In this document: positions 11,514 through 56,178 of the stretch, piece after piece
Layout of the letters: each line of letters opens with the position of its first letter
Numbering within the stretch: the stretch's first letter is position 1
Position numbers and translations under genes: made by a program
Assembly (NCBI GenBank): GCA_964404275.1
Contig: CAYOJH010000005.1
Coordinates: forward strand, 4,471 to 68,470
Origin: an uncultured Gammaproteobacteria bacterium
Lineage (GTDB): Bacteria > Patescibacteriota > Patescibacteriia > SG8-24 > DYFX01
Reading direction: 5' to 3'
DNA: 64,000 nt
Notes under the pieces: model-generated
The model's input: the letters and a program-made list of their open reading frames with translations, nothing else
Databases searched by the model: none
What the model was told of the DNA's origin: nothing

Positions 11514-12076
11514 AGGCCGTGGGCCAGAAGGCTGCAAAGCGCCAGGAAAGCCGCGATGCCGAAGAGCACGTAGGAAGCGTCTCGCGCGCCGGGAAAACCG
11601 CTTTCCAGAAAAATCAGGAAACAGGTCACGGCGACGACTTGGCAGACCATCTTCCACTTCCCCCACCAGTTCGAGCCGCGGATGACGCCTCGGCGCTTGC
11701 GCAGCCAGCCGCCGAGCACGAAAGCGAGCTCGAGGGCCAAGAGCGTCAGCGCGATGCCGATCGAAAACGCGCGGAAGAGCATCAGGACGACGACCGAGCC
11801 GATCAAGAGCTTGTCGGCGACCGGATCCCAAATCGTGCCCCAGGCCGTGATCTGGCCGCGCGTGCGCGCGAGCGAGCCGTCGATCAGATCGGTGAAGGCG
11901 ACGAAAAGAAAAAACGGCACGCCGACGGCATAGCGGCCGAAGGCCAAGAGCAGGATCACGAACGGGGTCAGCAAAAACCTGACGACCGTGATCTGATTCG
12001 GTCGCACGGAGTGCGGGAAGATCTTGAGGATCGTCGCCGCCAGCAAGCGGTCGTGCGGGTAGATTTTCGCCTTCAT
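11510..12076 (-). CDS. CDP-alcohol phosphatidyltransferase family protein
   Basis: Motif D-G-x2-A-R-x8-G-x3-G-x3-D-x3-D present (DLIDGSLARTRGQITAWGTIWDPVADKL); polytopic membrane protein. Confidence 0.8.
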   Translation of the reverse strand: MKAKIYPHDRLLAATILKIFPHSVRPNQITVVRFLLTPFVILLLAFGRYAVGVPFFLFVAFTDLIDGSLARTRGQITAWGTIWDPVADKLLIGSVVVLMLFRAFSIGIALTLLALELAFVLGGWLRKRRGVIRGSNWWGKWKMVCQVVAVTCFLIFLESGFPGARDASYVLFGIAAFLALCSLLAHGL

Positions 12077-15509: not shown

Positions 15510-16571
15510 TTATCCGCAAACCGTCTCGACGACGGTCTGATCGATCACTTTTGCGTCATACACGCGTTCGGCTCTGCCACGGGCCGCGCGGCCCATGGCG
15601 GCGGCGCGGTCTGGATCGGAAAGCAGCGTCTGGAGCGCATCGGCCAACGCTTCGACGTTCAACGGCGGCACGACCAGTCCCGTGACGCCGGGTTCGACAA
15701 GGCTGCGGACGCCGGGCAGATCCGAAACGATCGAGGGAACGCCGCTCGCCGCCGCCGCCAGCGTGACGAGGCCGAAGGCTTCCGAACGGTCGACGGAAGG
15801 CAGGACGTGGATCAAAGCTTCGCGATACAGCTCGGCCAGACGTTCGTCGGAGACGCGGCCGTGGAAACGGATGTGTCCCGCAAAGCCGGTCTTGGCCGCC
15901 AAGGTTTCATACGACGCGCGCAGATTACCGTCGCCGACGATCCAGAGTTCCGTTTCGGGCGCGTTCGCGGCGATTTTCGCGAACGCTTCAATCAGCATCG
16001 GCACGCCTTTGAAATAATGCGCGGCATCCAAACCTCCGACGAAGAGAATCGCGTTTTTCTTTTCTCCGCCCGGACGGAAGAAGTTCGTATCGACGCCGAG
16101 CGGGATCTCGCGGACGCGCGGATCGTTTTTCAAAAAAGCGATCTGCGACGAGGCGAAATACTCGCGGCTCGTGACGATGATCGCGTCCGCCGCGCGCAGG
16201 ATCGCTTTCAAGAAGAACGCGCGGTACAGAGAGAAGATCCGGGCCGCGAAACCTTTCCCGACCGTGTCCATGTGATACAGGACCGTCAGGCGCGTACGAC
16301 GGCCGAACGTCTTTTTCCAAAGCCAGACCCATTCCGCGCCGCCGAAGAACGGATAGTGCAGCTCGGCCGCGTCGAAGCCGCGCAGCTTCCAGAGCAACCC
16401 TGGAACGCAGGCGGCGTTGCCGATTTTGAAAAGCGGGTGCAGTCCCTGTCCGGGCGCGAACACGGCCGCGTCATGTCCCGCGCGCCGAAAAGCCGCCGCG
16501 TGATCCGCGGCCACGTTGCCCATGCCGCCTTTGTAAGGCGGAAACGTCGAAACGACGACGGCGACTTTCAT
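15510..16571 (-). CDS. GT4-family glycosyltransferase
   Basis: MKVAVVVSTFPPYKGG N-terminus, C-terminal SEAFGLVTLAAAASGVPSIVSD GT1/GT4 signature; internal Met start (track ORF has 79 extra codons overlapping upstream gene). Confidence 0.8.
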   Translation of the reverse strand: MKVAVVVSTFPPYKGGMGNVAADHAAAFRRAGHDAAVFAPGQGLHPLFKIGNAACVPGLLWKLRGFDAAELHYPFFGGAEWVWLWKKTFGRRTRLTVLYHMDTVGKGFAARIFSLYRAFFLKAILRAADAIIVTSREYFASSQIAFLKNDPRVREIPLGVDTNFFRPGGEKKNAILFVGGLDAAHYFKGVPMLIEAFAKIAANAPETELWIVGDGNLRASYETLAAKTGFAGHIRFHGRVSDERLAELYREALIHVLPSVDRSEAFGLVTLAAAASGVPSIVSDLPGVRSLVEPGVTGLVVPPLNVEALADALQTLLSDPDRAAAMGRAARGRAERVYDAKVIDQTVVETVCG

Positions 16572-16573
16572 AG

Positions 16574-17677
16574 CTACCACCACAGGATCAGCCGCGCGAC
16601 CGCCCAGTAGGCGGCGAACAGCGGGTTGGCGACGCGCGTCAGGAGCGAGGGCTGCATCTGCTGGAACAGGATCCTTCCGGTGAACAGGCGCGTGGCTTCC
16701 CGATCCGAAATCTTCCTGAGCCCCACCATGCGGACATGGGCCTCGCGCAGCTTCCGCAAATGTTCCCAAGAAAAGAAATACGCGTAGGCCCGGGCCTTTT
16801 CGCGCCACCAGCCGCTCTTGAAGGCGAAGAGCCAGAGGCCGATTTCCATCGTGATGAATGCCGGAGCGATCAGCAGGTGCGTCGGCCAGCGGTACATGCG
16901 GGTCAACACGATCAAACGATTGCGCTCCATCCAGAAATATTTCTTGATGCTGCGCGAAAATTCGTATTTGTGGAAGACGACCGAATCCGGCGCGAGGACC
17001 ACGCGGTGTCCCGATAGGCGCGCACGCCAGGAATATTCCAGGTCTTCGTGATAGGCGAAAAGTTCCTCGTCGAGAAAACCGATCTCGCGCAGCAGCGACG
17101 CGCGGATCAGCATGCCGGCGCCGCTGGCGTAGGCGATGTCGCGCATTTTCAATTTCGCCTGCACGGACGGGTCGGAGACCGGCAGCGACTCCCCTCCCGC
17201 GTAGCCGAAGCCGAGGAAATGAATTTCGTTGCCATAGGAATTGACCAGCTCGGTGCGCGGATGCAGCCGCAGGAAACTTTGGACGACGCCGATCTTCGGA
17301 TCGGAAGCCATCGTCCGCATCGCCGCTTCAAGAAAACCCGGCTGCGCTTCGGTGTCCGGATTGAGCAGGTACACGTACGCGTAGCCCTCTTCCAACGCTT
17401 TCCGCATCGCTTGATTGTTGCCGCCGGAAAAACCGAGGTTCTCGCTGTTTTTGAAAAAGACGCACGGAAATCCGCCCTTCGTCGTTTTCTGATCCGGCGA
17501 AAGCAGTTCGCGCGCGATGAATTCGCCGCTGCCGTCGGGCGAAGCGTTGTCGACGATCATCAAGGTCGCCGCGCCCGGCGCGATGCCGGCCTGTTCGACC
17601 GCGCGGAAACACGCGCCGAGAAATTTTCCGTGATTCCAAGAAACGACGATGATCGCCGTCCGCGCGTCAGGCGTCAT
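16574..17677 (-). CDS. GT2-family glycosyltransferase (GT-A fold, WbbL/rhamnosyltransferase-like)
   Basis: IVVSWNHGKFL...MIVDNASPDGS...DEELFAYHEDLEY motifs typical of GT2. Confidence 0.8.
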   Translation of the reverse strand: MTPDARTAIIVVSWNHGKFLGACFRAVEQAGIAPGAATLMIVDNASPDGSGEFIARELLSPDQKTTKGGFPCVFFKNSENLGFSGGNNQAMRKALEEGYAYVYLLNPDTEAQPGFLEAAMRTMASDPKIGVVQSFLRLHPRTELVNSYGNEIHFLGFGYAGGESLPVSDPSVQAKLKMRDIAYASGAGMLIRASLLREIGFLDEELFAYHEDLEYSWRARLSGHRVVLAPDSVVFHKYEFSRSIKKYFWMERNRLIVLTRMYRWPTHLLIAPAFITMEIGLWLFAFKSGWWREKARAYAYFFSWEHLRKLREAHVRMVGLRKISDREATRLFTGRILFQQMQPSLLTRVANPLFAAYWAVARLILWW

Positions 17678-40080: not shown

Positions 40081-40166
40081 AAGAAGCGCTGAAATCGCCC
40101 GACGGATTCCGGAAGACAAGGAGGAGGTGTCTCCCGGCCTCGCGTCGGGCGATTTCAAAGCTTCTT
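40081..40166 (-). promoter_or_regulatory. Long imperfect palindrome / stem-loop in 5' leader of collagen-like gene
   Basis: Perfect 14-bp arms GAAATCGCCCGACG (40091-40104) / CGTCGGGCGATTTC (40143-40156), inner arms CCGGAAGACA/TGTCTCCCGG, apical AAGGAGGAGG. Confidence 0.45.
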
Positions 40167-44482: not shown

Positions 44483-44887
44483 GGGGATGTATAGATTCGA
44501 TGGAGTTCGTTCTCAATTCGCGCAGGTTGACGGCGCCCGCCCGTCATAAATCACCGGGCAAACGACTACGTGCCAACGTTTTCGCAAAAGCCAAGGCCGC
44601 GTTCGCTCGCGCGTTCGCGCCGTCCTTCGCTCCGGTCTTCGCCTAAGCGCGACTGACCCATCGCCCGTCGACATCTTCTAGACGGATCCCGGTGTCATAA
44701 GAAGGTCCGCCGCATGTTCCGCCGAGAGGCATGCGATACGGTTGGATCCAGGCACGGACGCATGCCACTCGTCGCCTCTATGCATGCGCTCCGGTCCCGC
44801 TTGCGGGAAAACCCGAGACGACTACGCCTGTAGTGCGGATTGTCCTACTTCCTCCAGACCCGGGTGCGAATCCCGGCATCTCCACCA
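44483..44887 (+). ncRNA. ssrA: tmRNA (SsrA), one-piece
   Basis: 5' GGGGATG...ATTCGATGG (tRNA-like acceptor/D analog), 3' T-arm CCCGGGTGCGAATCCCGG and acceptor CATCTCCACCA pairing with 5' end; located immediately after smpB; internal Ala-rich tag frame ending TAA. Confidence 0.8.
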
Positions 44888-48770: not shown

Positions 48771-48806
48771 TGTCATCCTGAACGAAGTGAGGGATCTGTA
48801 TGACAT
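48771..48806. repeat. REP-like hairpin element (diverged single unit) between sufU and sufC
   Basis: TGTCATCCTGAACGAAGTGAGGGATCTGTATGACATG related to GTCATCCCTGCGAAAGCAGGGAT units elsewhere; overlaps last codons of sufU ORF. Confidence 0.6.
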
Positions 48807-49165
48807 GCGAGAGCAGACTTGAGCGTTCGGAGCGAGAGCATCGCGCACTTCAACCGCATCGGACCGACGTCGATACCGAGCATCTTGAGGATGTCCGTTT
48901 CGGAAAGTCGTTCCGCTTCTTCCACCGTCATGCCTTTCAGCGCGTCGGTCAGCATCGAGACGGAGGCCTGGCTGACGGCGCAGCCCGTGCCGTCGAACTT
49001 CACGGCCTCGATCTTCCCATGCGCGTCGGTTTGGAGAAAGAGCTCGATCACGTCGCCGCAGCTCGGATTGAGTTCCCGCGCGTGAAGCTGCGCAGCTTCA
49101 AGCCGACCCGCGTTGTGCGGGTGCTTGTAGTGGTCGAGGATGTTTTCCATGTAGAGTTCTTCCAT
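48773..49165 (-). CDS. sufU: SufU-type (NifU/IscU-like) Fe-S scaffold / sulfur acceptor
   Basis: LYMENILDHYKHPHNAG...NPSCGD...GTGCAVSQAS...LKCAMLS conserved Cys ligands; start at MEELY (49165); track N-extension is REP translation. Confidence 0.85.
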   Translation of the reverse strand: MEELYMENILDHYKHPHNAGRLEAAQLHARELNPSCGDVIELFLQTDAHGKIEAVKFDGTGCAVSQASVSMLTDALKGMTVEEAERLSETDILKMLGIDVGPMRLKCAMLSLRTLKSALACHTDPSLRSG

Positions 49166-49175
49166 AGCGTTCTTT

Positions 49176-49243
49176 GTCATTCCAGCGAAAGCTGGAATCC
49201 AGTCCATTAGCGTACTGGATCCCTGCGTTCGCAGGGATGACAT
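49176..49243. repeat. REP-like hairpin doublet (two GNRA-loop hairpins in inverted orientation) in sufS-sufU intergenic region
   Basis: GTCATTCCAGC-GAAA-GCTGGAATCCAG + 12 nt + CTGGATCCCTGCG-TTC-GCAGGGATGAC. Confidence 0.75.
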
Positions 49244-49250
49244 CATCAGT

Positions 49251-50498
49251 TCAAAGCTTCAAAACTTTTTTAGCTTTCACAATCGCGGCGACGAGCGTGT
49301 CGACGTCTTCTTTTCCGTTGTAGACGCCGAAGCTCGCACGGCAGGTGCCGGTGAGACCGAGCCTGTTCATGAGCGGCATCGCGCAGTGATGTCCGCCGCG
49401 CACGGCCACGCCTTCGCGATCGAGCAGCGTGGCCAGATCGTGCGGATGCGCGCCGGCGACTTCGAAGGAAATGACGCCAATCCTTGCCTGACGCAAAAAC
49501 TGACGGCCGTCGGTTTTTGCGTCAGCGCCCCGAGGACCGATCAGGCGGAGCCCGGACACTGCCGAAAACTTTTCCAGCGCGTAGGCCGTGAGCTCGCAAT
49601 CATGCGTTTCGATCGCGTCCATGCCGATCGCATTGAGATAGCCGATCGCCGCGCCGAGACCGATCACGCCGGCGATGTTCGGCGTCCCCGCTTCGAATTT
49701 CATCGGAGCGTCATTCCAGGTCGAGGCTTCGTATTTCACTTCGCGAATCATGTCGCCGCCGTACTGCGCGGGCTCCATCTTTTCCAAGAGCGCTTTCTTG
49801 CCGTAGAGCACGCCGACGCCGGTCGGACCGTACGCTTTATGCGCGGAAAAGGTCAGGAAATCGCAATCGAGATCGCGCACGTTCACTTTCATATGCGGCA
49901 CGGACTGCGCGGCGTCCAGAATGAAGATCGCGCCGACGGCGTGCGCGAGCGCGGCGAGCTCCTTGGCCGGAGTGATCGTGCCGAGCACGTTCGACGCATG
50001 GACGATCGATACCGCCTTCGTCTTCGAGGTGATGAGCGCGCGCGCCGCGTCCATGTCGAGGAGATATTCGCTCGTGAGCGGAATGAATTTCAGCGCGAAT
50101 CCGTGGCGTTTGGCGGCTTCTTGCCACGGCACCAGGTTGGCGTGATGTTCCATCTCGGTCAGCACGACTTCGTCGCCGGGACCGAACGTACGGCCAAGCG
50201 AGGACGCGAGGAGATTCAGCGCTTCCGTCGTGCCTTTGGTGAAAACGATTTCTTCCGGCGCGGCGGCATTCAAAAATTTCGCGACGATGCCGCGCACGGC
50301 CTCGTAGCGTTCGGTCGCCTCCCCCGCCGTCTTGTACATGCCGCGATGCACGTTGGCGCGGAAATTTTTGTAGTACGCGTTCATCGCCTCGATGACCGAG
50401 ACTGGCGTGAGCGACGAAGCGGCCGAATCCAAGTAGGCTCGCGTGCCCATGGCATGGAGCGAAGGAAAATCCTTTTGGATGTCCTGAGGCATTTTCAT
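49251..50498 (-). CDS. sufS: Cysteine desulfurase SufS (class II aminotransferase V)
   Basis: PLP lysine SAHKAYGPTGVGVLYG, active-site RGGHHCAMPL; contains in-frame 38-nt palindromic insertion. Confidence 0.9.
   Translation of the reverse strand: MKMPQDIQKDFPSLHAMGTRAYLDSAASSLTPVSVIEAMNAYYKNFRANVHRGMYKTAGEATERYEAVRGIVAKFLNAAAPEEIVFTKGTTEALNLLASSLGRTFGPGDEVVLTEMEHHANLVPWQEAAKRHGFALKFIPLTSEYLLDMDAARALITSKTKAVSIVHASNVLGTITPAKELAALAHAVGAIFILDAAQSVPHMKVNVRDLDCDFLTFSAHKAYGPTGVGVLYGKKALLEKMEPAQYGGDMIREVKYEASTWNDAPMKFEAGTPNIAGVIGLGAAIGYLNAIGMDAIETHDCELTAYALEKFSAVSGLRLIGPRGADAKTDGRQFLRQARIGVISFEVAGAHPHDLATLLDREGVAVRGGHHCAMPLMNRLGLTGTCRASFGVYNGKEDVDTLVAAIVKAKKVLKL
49488..49525. repeat. 38-nt near-perfect palindrome inside sufS coding sequence
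   Basis: CTGACGCAAAAAC-TGACGGCCGTCG-GTTTTTGCGTCAG: 13-bp perfect arms around self-complementary core; encodes extra loop (ADAKTDGRQFLRQ) between conserved GP and GVISF. Confidence 0.8.
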
Positions 50499-50499
50499 A

Positions 50500-51330
50500 T
50501 CAAGAAAGCTTGGAGAGATACGGCTCGACGAACGCTTCGATCAGGATCGCTTCGGCAGATGCGCGATCGAGGCCGCGCGACATAAGATAAAACAATTTCT
50601 CGGCATCGAGGCGTCCAACCGTGGCGGCGTGCGAGCAGCGCACGTCCTGGTTCTCGATTTCGAGCATCGGCACCGCGTCGATTTCGGACGCGTCGGAGAG
50701 CAGTAGCGTTTCCTCTTTCTGGCGGCTGATGCAGCCTGGAGCATTCTTCTCGACCCGCACGAGACCGCGAACGATCGCCTTGGCATCGCCCGAAAGCACG
50801 CTGCCGACGCGCAGGCTGGAGACCGTGCGCGGGGCGAGATGGAAGATTTCGTGCTTCATGTCGAAGCGCTGGCGATTCGTGCCGCGGAGCAAACTCGTCG
50901 CTTCGACTTCGGCGCCTTCGCCCTCAAGACGCGTCACGAACAACGCGCGCGCGAAATTCGGAACGGAGCATTCGTCGATCCATTCCAGTTTCGCGTTCTT
51001 GGCGAGACGCGCTTCGCGTCGCACGAACTCGACGTCGGCTTTCGCCCTCGTCACGTACGTGACCCGCGCGCCTTCGCCGATTTCCAAATCGATGGACATT
51101 TCGCGCGCGCCTTCCGACGTTTCAACCAAGCGAACCTGCGCGCGCGCACCGATGGTCATTGCCACATCCGTCGCGCCTGAGGGGATTTCAATCGCCACCG
51201 TGCCGGCCTCCTGGCCGTCCGAAATCGTGTACGTCAATTTTTTGCGGGCGCGGAAAATTGCCCGGTCGAAACCTTCCGGGGATTCGGGCATGAAGATGCC
51301 GATGCCGTATTTGAGAAGTTTGGTCGCCAT
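50500..51330 (-). CDS. sufD: SufD-like Fe-S assembly protein (short form)
   Basis: C-terminal SufB/SufD beta-helix region (VRCSHAATVGRLDAEKLFYLMSRGL...AILIEAFVEP); between sufB and sufS. Confidence 0.75.
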   Translation of the reverse strand: MATKLLKYGIGIFMPESPEGFDRAIFRARKKLTYTISDGQEAGTVAIEIPSGATDVAMTIGARAQVRLVETSEGAREMSIDLEIGEGARVTYVTRAKADVEFVRREARLAKNAKLEWIDECSVPNFARALFVTRLEGEGAEVEATSLLRGTNRQRFDMKHEIFHLAPRTVSSLRVGSVLSGDAKAIVRGLVRVEKNAPGCISRQKEETLLLSDASEIDAVPMLEIENQDVRCSHAATVGRLDAEKLFYLMSRGLDRASAEAILIEAFVEPYLSKLS

Positions 51331-52721: not shown

Positions 52722-53114
52722 TCATTTTGCTACGTCGGCGATCGTGGTGTTCATCAACGTCGCCATGACCTGGCCCTGCACTTTGGTGAGGATGCCGGCG
52801 TCATGATGATGCGCGACCGCCGTACACGCTTCGCGCTCCATCGGTCCTTCGACCGCCTGCATGACTTCGGCAACCGTCAGCGTCTTCGGATCGCGCACCA
52901 AACGATACCCGCCCGCCGCGCCGCGCACGCCCTCGATGATCTTTCCGCGGCGTAAGTCGGCCGCGACTTCTTCCAAGAACTTGCGCGACTCCCCGCTCTT
53001 CTTGGCCACTTCCTCAATCGAAAGCGGACCAGCATCCTGAGAACGCTGGGCGAGCTCCGAAACGAGGTACAGGCCCAACTGGGCCTTGCGAGTGACTTTG
53101 AGGAGGGAGTGCAT
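52722..53114 (-). CDS. Rrf2-family transcriptional regulator (likely suf operon regulator)
   Basis: N-terminal wHTH (LYLVSELAQRSQDAGPLSIEEVAKKSGESRKFLEEV) typical of Rrf2/IscR; first gene of suf cluster. Confidence 0.75.
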   Translation of the reverse strand: MHSLLKVTRKAQLGLYLVSELAQRSQDAGPLSIEEVAKKSGESRKFLEEVAADLRRGKIIEGVRGAAGGYRLVRDPKTLTVAEVMQAVEGPMEREACTAVAHHHDAGILTKVQGQVMATLMNTTIADVAK

Positions 53115-53188
53115 GACATCATGTCATCCCTGCGAAAGCAGGGATCCAGTACCTTAATGAACTGGATTCCAGCTTTCGCTGGAATGAC
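53113..53188. repeat. REP-like hairpin doublet (inverted copy of 49176-49243) spanning rrf2 start codon and 5' leader
   Basis: ATGACATCATGTCAT palindrome then GTCATCCCTGCGAAAGCAGGGATCCAG + 12 nt + CTGGATTCCAGCTTTCGCTGGAATGAC; ~94% identical to reverse complement of 49176-49243. Confidence 0.75.
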
Positions 53189-56041: not shown

Positions 56042-56053
56042 GCCAAAAACCGG

Positions 56054-56090
56054 AAAAGTCAAGGCGCTTCAAAACGCCTTGACTTTTTTG
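56054..56090 (+). terminator. Rho-independent terminator after rplT
   Basis: AAAAGTCAAGGCG-cttcaaaa-CGCCTTGAC then TTTTTT. Confidence 0.8.
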
Positions 56091-56178
56091 CGTTTTCCTG
56101 TTACCCTGGCGCGTTGCTCTTTGGAAAATTCACCCCTACCGAAAACCCCTAGCCCGACACCAAGAAAGAGAGGTGGCT

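Follow-up and report, generated by a model that had tools for sequence, protein, structure and literature searches.

Introduction

Rickettsia palindromic elements (RPEs), which were reportedly described by Ogata and colleagues in 2000, form dispersed families of 100-150 bp with dozens of copies that share sequence, and near-precise excision of the transposon Tn10 leaves behind a palindromic remnant of ~50 bp. In this study, we analyze a near-perfect palindrome of 38 nts at positions 49488-49525 of a 64-kb stretch of bacterial DNA (contig CAYOJH010000005.1; the whole stretch is called the window hereafter), where it lies inside sufS, the gene for a cysteine desulfurase. Like an RPE, this palindrome is placed in frame within an essential gene, leaves the open reading frame (ORF) open and would add an extra peptide to the protein surface; unlike RPEs, the sufS insert comprises 36-38 nts, is single-copy where copies could be searched for, and is partly made of host sequence. 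The likeness to a Tn10-type remnant lies in a short palindrome inside a gene and in the short direct repeats flanking it. However, there is no sign that a transposon was ever present at the sufS site, and a disrupted intermediate is unlikely given that the gene is presumably essential.

In quasi-palindrome or template-switch mutations of E. coli and yeast (PMC5941160, PMC8604942), the new sequence is the reverse complement of its neighbor, as it is here. Template switching perfects and conserves inverted repeats in bacteria and produces paired double changes in which selection plays no part (Lavi et al. 2018, PMC5941160), and in yeast coding DNA it alters multiple codons in a single event, on occasion in more than one lineage in parallel (Abraham and Hazkani-Covo 2021, PMC8604942). 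Further points of likeness are the formation of perfect inverted repeats in one step, the location in coding DNA, the change of several codons, and the parallel recurrence at a site. On the other hand, the described cases mostly perfect imperfect repeats or invert spacers of a few bases, whereas 36 nts have been added to sufS and the template arm is mostly without a traceable ancestor. The coding palindromes of Nematomorpha mitochondria (2019, PMC6649704) are likewise perfect inverted repeats within functional genes, and both of their arms are translated. Those repeats are numerous, reach 284 bp and have arms encoding conserved regions, whereas sufS contains one short palindrome in a non-conserved loop with a predicted local distance difference test (pLDDT) score <50. 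Judged by these comparisons, template-switch or quasi-palindrome products and the Nematomorpha coding palindromes appear to be the closest known kinds.

A near-perfect palindrome inside sufS

The plus strand of 49488-49525 reads CTGACGCAAAAACTGACGGCCGTCGGTTTTTGCGTCAG, and the element itself is strand-neutral. Sequence and pairing agree with the sequence-only reading that first drew attention to it as a 38-nt palindrome with 13-bp perfect arms and a self-complementary core. Among its 19 pairs, 18 are matched: the 13 outer pairs are perfect, a single mismatched pair (14/25) follows, and the 10-nt core (GACGGCCGTC) is self-complementary, so that 36 of the 38 positions agree with their own reverse complement. 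Complementarity stops abruptly at both ends. The plus strand has the layout X-S-X-GC-X'-S'-X', in which X is CTGACG and S is CAAAAA (CTGACG-CAAAAA-CTGACG-GC-CGTCGG-TTTTTG-CGTCAG), with a direct repeat of CTGACG inside each arm.

This is the longest and strongest palindrome of the window. When the whole 64 kb was shuffled 40 times with dinucleotide composition preserved and one mismatched pair allowed, the maxima reached 9-14 pairs (mean 11) compared with the 18 pairs observed. The window-wide excess of short palindromes is mild (8 with at least 10 pairs vs 3.5 +/- 1.8 expected). Folding of a 76-nt piece in the mRNA sense gave -34.9 kcal/mol (z = -4.06), a value that none of 200 shuffles equaled, and folding of the sufS palindrome with DNA parameters gave z = -3.25.

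Pairing and codon reading place the upstream arm, CTGACGCAAAAACCGACGG in the coding sense, at 49507-49525 on the minus strand, and the downstream arm, CCGTCAGTTTTTGCGTCAG, at 49488-49506 on the same strand. The downstream arm is an inverted copy of the upstream arm and complements it at 18 of 19 positions. The sole mismatch involves position 14 of the upstream arm, which is the third base of the Thr329 codon ACC, and its partner is the middle base of the Gln333 codon CAG; ACT in place of ACC would give a perfect 38-nt palindrome and leave the protein unchanged. Since the mismatch falls on a synonymous third codon position, the palindrome was apparently perfect at birth, and its sequence suggests one later silent substitution, a direction of change that is not provable.

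The in-frame insertion and its boundaries

The gene sufS (49251-50498, minus strand) encodes a type II, SufU-dependent cysteine desulfurase of 415 aa, as judged from homology, structure match and invariant residues. It is the fourth gene of a compact operon (rrf2-sufB-sufD-sufS-sufU-sufC-sufT) in which neighboring genes abut or overlap. The window has a G+C content of 62.6%, and the nearest database proteins to its SufS are labelled Patescibacteria. The palindrome keeps the sufS reading frame, contributing 12 codons and no stop, and the protein aligns end to end with SufS. The initial claim that the palindrome sits in a cysteine desulfurase gene with the frame preserved is thereby borne out, the minus-strand ORF 49251-50498 being open throughout.

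Codon alignments with insert-free relatives (P0003 from L001, P0004 from L004, and L033) delimit an in-frame insertion of 36 nts, or 12 codons, at 49485-49520 on the minus strand, which translates to AKTDGRQFLRQA and corresponds to SufS residues 327-338. Its boundaries can slide by a few bases, GCA being present at both ends. Immediately upstream are the loop codons RGAD (CGG GGC GCT GAC; residues 323-326; 49521-49532, minus strand), which align with RAGE and GADE of relatives and are probably the ancestral four-residue loop, homologous to the xxGE loops; it is this resemblance that makes the above placement of the insert the most economical one. The last five bases of the RGAD codons, CTGAC (49521-49525, codons A325-D326), form the outer end of the upstream arm. 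At the far end of the insert stands GTCAG, the exact inverted copy of CTGAC, and then GCA, which repeats the first three bases of the insert. With respect to the size first proposed, the in-frame excess stands by codon alignment; the extent of ~13 residues or 38 nts does not, as the net insertion is 36 nts (12 codons) and five bases of the palindrome are host codons.

The full loop here is GP-RGADAKTDGRQFLRQA-RIG, compared with GP-xxGE-RIG in the closest SufS relatives (76-88% identity), whose clade has xxGE with few exceptions; this amounts to an excess of 12 codons. The loop between GP and GVI had been read from the start as RGADAKTDGRQFLRQARI and as short in B. subtilis SufS, and this reading was confirmed: the alignment against B. 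subtilis SufS (5j8q, 5xt5) contains a 14-residue gap exactly at the loop. Among the 120 best homologues, the spacing from GP to R(I/V)G is 3-5 residues in 112 and 7-16 residues in eight. The window insert was not found in any of the 119 other listed homologues, including those 86-88% identical outside the loop, and this absence indicates that the insertion is recent and lineage-specific. Nor do close relatives share a non-palindromic loop of the same length, which would have spoken for an ancestral feature; alignment of orthologs, the check proposed along with the first observation, thus favors an insertion. A protein search with the 76-aa segment around the insert returned short fragments only, none of which carries the insert.

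At the protein level, SufS matches B. subtilis SufS (5j8q/5xt5) with E = 1.7e-134, and its AlphaFold2 model superposes on 5xt5 with a TM-score of 0.94-0.96. The catalytic Cys372 is intact and forms an invariant column among homologues. The HPHD motif is likewise intact and invariant, and its second His, His353 (His342 in B. subtilis), is the SufU zinc ligand. The model has a mean pLDDT of 91, and its lone segment below 50 is residues 327-335, modelled as a coil that follows strand 317-320 and precedes strand 342-347 in the small C-terminal domain. Structure modelling, also proposed at the outset, has therefore placed the extra residues in a predicted disordered coil. In B. subtilis numbering, the insert lies between E326 and E327, at the far end of the strand leading to the SufU-binding His. 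The insert is predicted to be an exposed, disordered surface loop, and we infer from the model that this loop is harmless and neutral and that enzyme activity is retained.

Palindromes at the same loop in other lineages

Several relatives carry palindromes of their own at this loop. In P0028 (L031; loop VPVPEGTGTG), the sequence TCGGACCGGTGCCTGTCCCC-GA-GGGGACAGGCACCGGTCGGA forms 19 of 20 pairs and reaches from the GP codons as far as the R codon (DNA z = -5.61). P0026 (L030; loop IAANFHDRENSRAK) contains CCGCAAATTTTCACG-AC-CGTGAAAATTCGCGG with 14 pairs, and P0002 (L003; loop ASVPGTKGTGMD) contains CTTCGGTACCTGGTACCAAAG with 9 pairs. In each of these three genes, the loop palindrome is the best of the entire gene, and the sequences are unrelated to that of the window. 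The P0028 protein is present on two contigs, one source being NCBI and the other JGI, and P0008 is present on three contigs. P0005 and P0008 have GGTACCTGGTACC in common, with z = -2.43 for P0008. P0099, P0124 and P0121 were examined as blind tests. Weaker cases are P0099, whose loop forms 7 Watson-Crick pairs and one G.T pair, and P0124 from another clade, whose insert repeats the downstream host codons G-D-R-V in inverted form, interrupted by one bulge (z only -0.87). In the long loops of P0040 and P0121, nothing palindromic was found, and P0121 is without an inverted repeat.

As controls, insert-free genes show 4-5 pairs at the loop site, and other indels of the suf operon, namely those of +25 aa (window and L030) and +13 aa (L030) in SufD, are not palindromic. 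Relatives at ~50% identity from metagenomes were used solely as a control for loop length and palindromes. Altogether, palindromic inserts at one codon position are highly significant in two lineages and moderate in two or three others. The recurrence of different palindromes at the same codon position in several lineages points to a site-linked mutational process, and the loop appears, from the sequences compared, to be an indel hot spot with a permissive filter. A conserved hairpin already present at the site was considered and rejected, as percentiles of minimum free energy suggested structure in L001 and L033 but not in L004, and the shuffle z-scores were not significant.

To examine the phylogenetic pattern, a neighbor-joining tree was built with the loop masked and without bootstrap, and was supplemented by pairwise identities. 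By both measures, insert-bearing genes are interleaved with insert-free genes. P0002 is nearest to the insert-free P0004 and P0007 (92-93%), and P0005 is nearest to the insert-free P0006. The window sufS has P0002 and P0005, both with the other type of insert, as its nearest neighbors. The sister genes P0026 and P0028 have different inserts. The inserts of P0002, P0008 and P0028 align at each codon (V-P-x-x-x-G-T-G). When set in register with the P0028 palindrome, the relatives retain 9-12 of 17 pairs; in P0028, each arm combines conserved sequence of host or insert, also present in P0002 and P0008, with lineage-specific multi-nucleotide changes that match the conserved part of the other arm. 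This pattern shows signs of arm homogenization. The inserts of the window and P0026 have the same center and frame, with 21 of 42 nts identical and five pair-preserving double changes, and the two genomes have a SufD insertion in common; together, these points suggest but do not establish homology, with a rough estimate of p 0.02-0.05.

A comparable patchiness was observed in the neighboring gene sufD (50500-51330). The window SufD has 25 extra N-terminal residues (32-45 and 55-65) that are common only to L030, the genome of P0026; L003, L004, L031 and L033 are without them, and the distribution parallels the sufS loop type.

A possible origin by template switching

Our preferred explanation, held at about even confidence, is that fold-back or template-switch errors of replication create, and perhaps homogenize, coding palindromes in this tolerant loop. 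During replication or repair, a nascent strand would have folded back or switched template and copied adjacent sequence in inverted form, thereby placing 36 extra nts after the ancestral loop codons (GP-RGAD) and before the conserved RIG strand. The insertion could have survived because its length is a multiple of three and it contains no stop codons, and because a surface loop of the small C-terminal domain would tolerate disordered residues while the enzyme still works. The palindrome itself would have no dedicated function and ribosomes would read through it, while template switching may keep its arms matched after birth. In related lineages, the same loop has taken other inserts, several of them palindromic, and would thus combine a mutational hot spot with a permissive filter.

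Several observations argue for such a local, self-templated origin: the presence of host codons in one arm, the uniqueness of the sequence, its apparent perfection at birth, the recurrent palindromes at the site, the homogenization suggested for P0028, and the non-palindromic nature of the other indels. In particular, CTGAC in host codons together with its inverted copy GTCAG at the end of the insert points to self-templating rather than to a foreign element. As expected of a template switch, the added bases are the reverse complement of the sequence next to them, and the change is lineage-specific, clustered and recurrent at the site. Only CTGAC (A325-D326) of the template arm is matched in relatives, and its 14 inner bases are without a counterpart.

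Other points weigh against this explanation. First, host sequence accounts for just 5 of the 19 bases in the template arm, and no donor for the other 14 (GCAAAAACCGACGG) was found within the window, which is only 64 kb of the genome. Second, one simple fold-back would yield 19 nts instead of 36, which means that either a compound event or an intermediate since lost has to be assumed. Third, the nearest relatives have ~88% identity, so that the state before the insertion is not observed. Fourth, hairpin strength is significant only for the window insert, P0028 and (weakly) P0008, and P0026, P0002, P0099 and P0124 are not thermodynamic outliers. Finally, if the inserts of the window and P0026 are homologous, pairing would have been kept through ~50% divergence, which would need repeated homogenization or selection. 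The reverse complement of the RIGV codons was also compared with the upstream arm; the match (TGACGC plus 3 more of 12 positions) was judged to be at chance level.

If fold-back errors are indeed responsible, sufS would be a clean natural case in which such an error gives an essential, highly conserved enzyme an entire new peptide loop in a single step, and the addition would have been repeated at one site in related lineages. This would bear on how proteins gain insertions and on adaptive-looking parallel changes that come from mutation bias. It would also mean that palindromic inserts in genes need not be mobile elements and, for annotation, that a striking intragenic hairpin alone is not evidence of regulation. 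In practical terms, the loop (326/327 of B. subtilis SufS) would be marked as a tolerant insertion point.

Alternative explanations

The palindrome might instead be a small mobile palindromic element, similar to RPEs, repetitive extragenic palindromic (REP) sequences or MITEs (miniature inverted-repeat transposable elements), or the footprint of a near-precise excision with inverted ends, kept as it is in frame in a permissive loop. We regard this as unlikely. It would account for an insertion that is both palindromic and in frame, as RPEs are, and for the interleaving of insert-bearing and insert-free sufS genes in the tree. In addition, a direct repeat of 3-4 nts (GCA or GCAA) borders a 33-nt unit and could be a target-site duplication, and small mobile hairpins are present in these genomes, as a family with TGTCAT...ATGACA ends occurs in suf spacers of the window (49176-49241, 53123-53188 and a remnant at 48772-48804), L003 and L115. 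However, that family has no sequence similarity to the sufS palindrome, and a link between them was rejected on that ground. The symmetry also reaches host codons 5 nts outside the 33-nt unit, so its limits are not those set by the direct repeat. Moreover, the palindromes of other lineages at the same site are unrelated in sequence, whereas a mobile family would be expected to share sequence.

Above all, no second copy was detected. Within the window, to which the copy-number test inside the source genome applies (the collections searched do not include that genome), searching for the 13-mer arm at up to 2 mismatches found nothing beyond chance-level matches, and 8- and 9-mers of the palindrome gave scattered chance matches with no k-mer cluster and no donor template. 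The 19-nt half-site had 25 chance matches in 185,579 genomes, all single-strand, none palindromic and from unrelated organisms. The central 28-mer had no match in 241 million metagenome records and none in viral contigs, and BLAST against phages and plasmids returned no match to the palindrome. The RPE-like nature suggested by the sequence-only reading is therefore not upheld: no second copy was found, either within the window or among the collections of genomes, metagenomes, viruses, phages and plasmids, and the outer end of one arm consists of host codons. The intact in-frame ORF is a property shared with RPEs; dispersed copies (in 64 kb and the collections) and a length of 100-150 bp are not. 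REP sequences and bacterial interspersed mosaic elements (BIMEs) are extragenic and of high copy number, whereas the palindrome lies inside sufS and is single-copy where searched. As for MITEs, GCA or GCAA stands at both ends of the 33-nt unit, where a target-site duplication would be expected, but the symmetry extends past it by 5 nts; neither multiple copies nor a parent element was found in the searches.

It is similarly improbable, in our view, that the hairpin itself is selected, either as an mRNA structure in sufS (a ribosome pause, an RNase site, or a stability element that uncouples sufBDS from sufUC) or as a DNA site for a dimeric protein. In an operon nearly devoid of intergenic space, such a structure would have been embedded in the one loop that tolerates extra codons; its predicted stability is very high, and at least two sequences unrelated to each other, namely the window insert and P0028, have strong hairpins at this codon position. 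If the window and P0026 inserts are homologous, five pairs would have changed on both sides and still be paired; template switching, however, also gives paired double changes without selection (PMC5941160). Most close relatives are without the insert, the inserts of P0002, P0099 and P0121 fold unremarkably, and the insert sequences are too different for one DNA-binding protein. The self-complementary center, which puts GGCC in the would-be loop, and the Watson-Crick perfection reflect a symmetry at the DNA level that RNA does not need, and the sole mismatch is a C.A pair in the mRNA sense.

At the gathering score, Rfam 15 has no match at the palindrome, and the only match in the window is a transfer-messenger RNA (tmRNA) gene. 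An intrinsic, bidirectional terminator was rejected as well: the inner stem has 3-5 pairs, the U-run is within the stem and pairs with the A-run, and a terminator scan listed only off-register hairpins without a proper tail. An RNA structure or protein-binding site controlling sufU-sufC, the other possibility raised initially, finds no support in conservation, since the insert is absent from close relatives, the other inserts are unrelated, and hairpin strengths are very unequal.

A further reading seems quite improbable: in this Patescibacteria clade, hairpins in the GP/RIG loop of sufS would be actively maintained by selection for an mRNA or DNA structure within the gene that tunes the suf operon, or installed by hairpin-directed insertion aimed at this one site, with the window and P0026 inserts being homologous through five compensatory double changes and P0028 being an independent solution.

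Palindromes are a known product of chimeric reads, and the exact protein is found on one NCBI contig only (a cluster of one, with no independent assembly), but an assembly or sequencing artefact of this single metagenome-assembled contig is very improbable, as the gene is in frame on both sides without stops, the one asymmetric difference is of a synonymous type and unlike a fold-back artefact, the analogous P0028 palindrome comes from two sources and P0008 from three contigs, and assembly fold-backs normally occur at contig ends while this palindrome is 14.5 kb from the nearer window end.

Other repeats and features of the window

Two further kinds of hairpin were observed in spacers of the suf operon. 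A double-hairpin element of ~68 nts is present in two copies (49176-49241 and 53123-53188) and consists of TGTCATYCCNGC-GAAM-GCNGGRATCCAG, 12 nts, and CTGGATYCCNGC-TTTC-GCNGGRATGACA, the order of the hairpins being opposite between the copies. The first copy is located between the sufS stop (49251) and the position near 49165 where sufU truly starts, and its translation, WIPAFAGMTKN, falsely lengthens the N-terminus of the sufU ORF; the second is just upstream of the rrf2 start at 53114. From its sequence, this element looks like a REP- or MITE-like family invading suf spacers. Members of the related hairpin family with TGTCAT...ATGACA ends were found at 48772-48804 of the window, at 1069-1142 and 3172-3248 of L003, and at 1889-1973 of L115. 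In the relatives, they are perfect hairpins of 85-95 nts that occupy various suf spacers, namely those ahead of sufD and between sufS and sufU. The window copy is truncated and stands at the sufU/sufC junction, where sufU takes its final codons and its stop from it (DPSLRSG*).

Within sufU, a 24-nt palindrome at 49080-49103 (GCGTGAAGCTGCGCAGCTTCAAGC, 11 of 12 pairs) is the joint second-best of the window. A small intergenic hairpin at 11965-11990, GGGGTCAGCAAAAACCTGACGACC (GTCAG-CAAAAAC-CTGAC), has GCAAAAAC(C)TGACG in common with the sufS arm (15 of 16 positions with one indel); this is the only partial look-alike in the window, and the similarity was judged to be at chance level. The tmRNA gene occupies 44483-44887 on the plus strand (Rfam RF00023, 77 bits). 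Two intergenic inverted repeats, at 40081-40166 (24-nt arms, 92% complementary, 38-nt spacer) and 56045-56096 (25-nt arms, 80% complementary, 2-nt spacer, with A/T runs), probably represent terminators or additional repeats. An imperfect 38-nt palindrome (82% complementary, core GCCACGGGCCGCGCGGCCCATGGC) was also detected at 15569-15606, in coding sequence near the 3' end of the minus-strand ORF 15510-16808.

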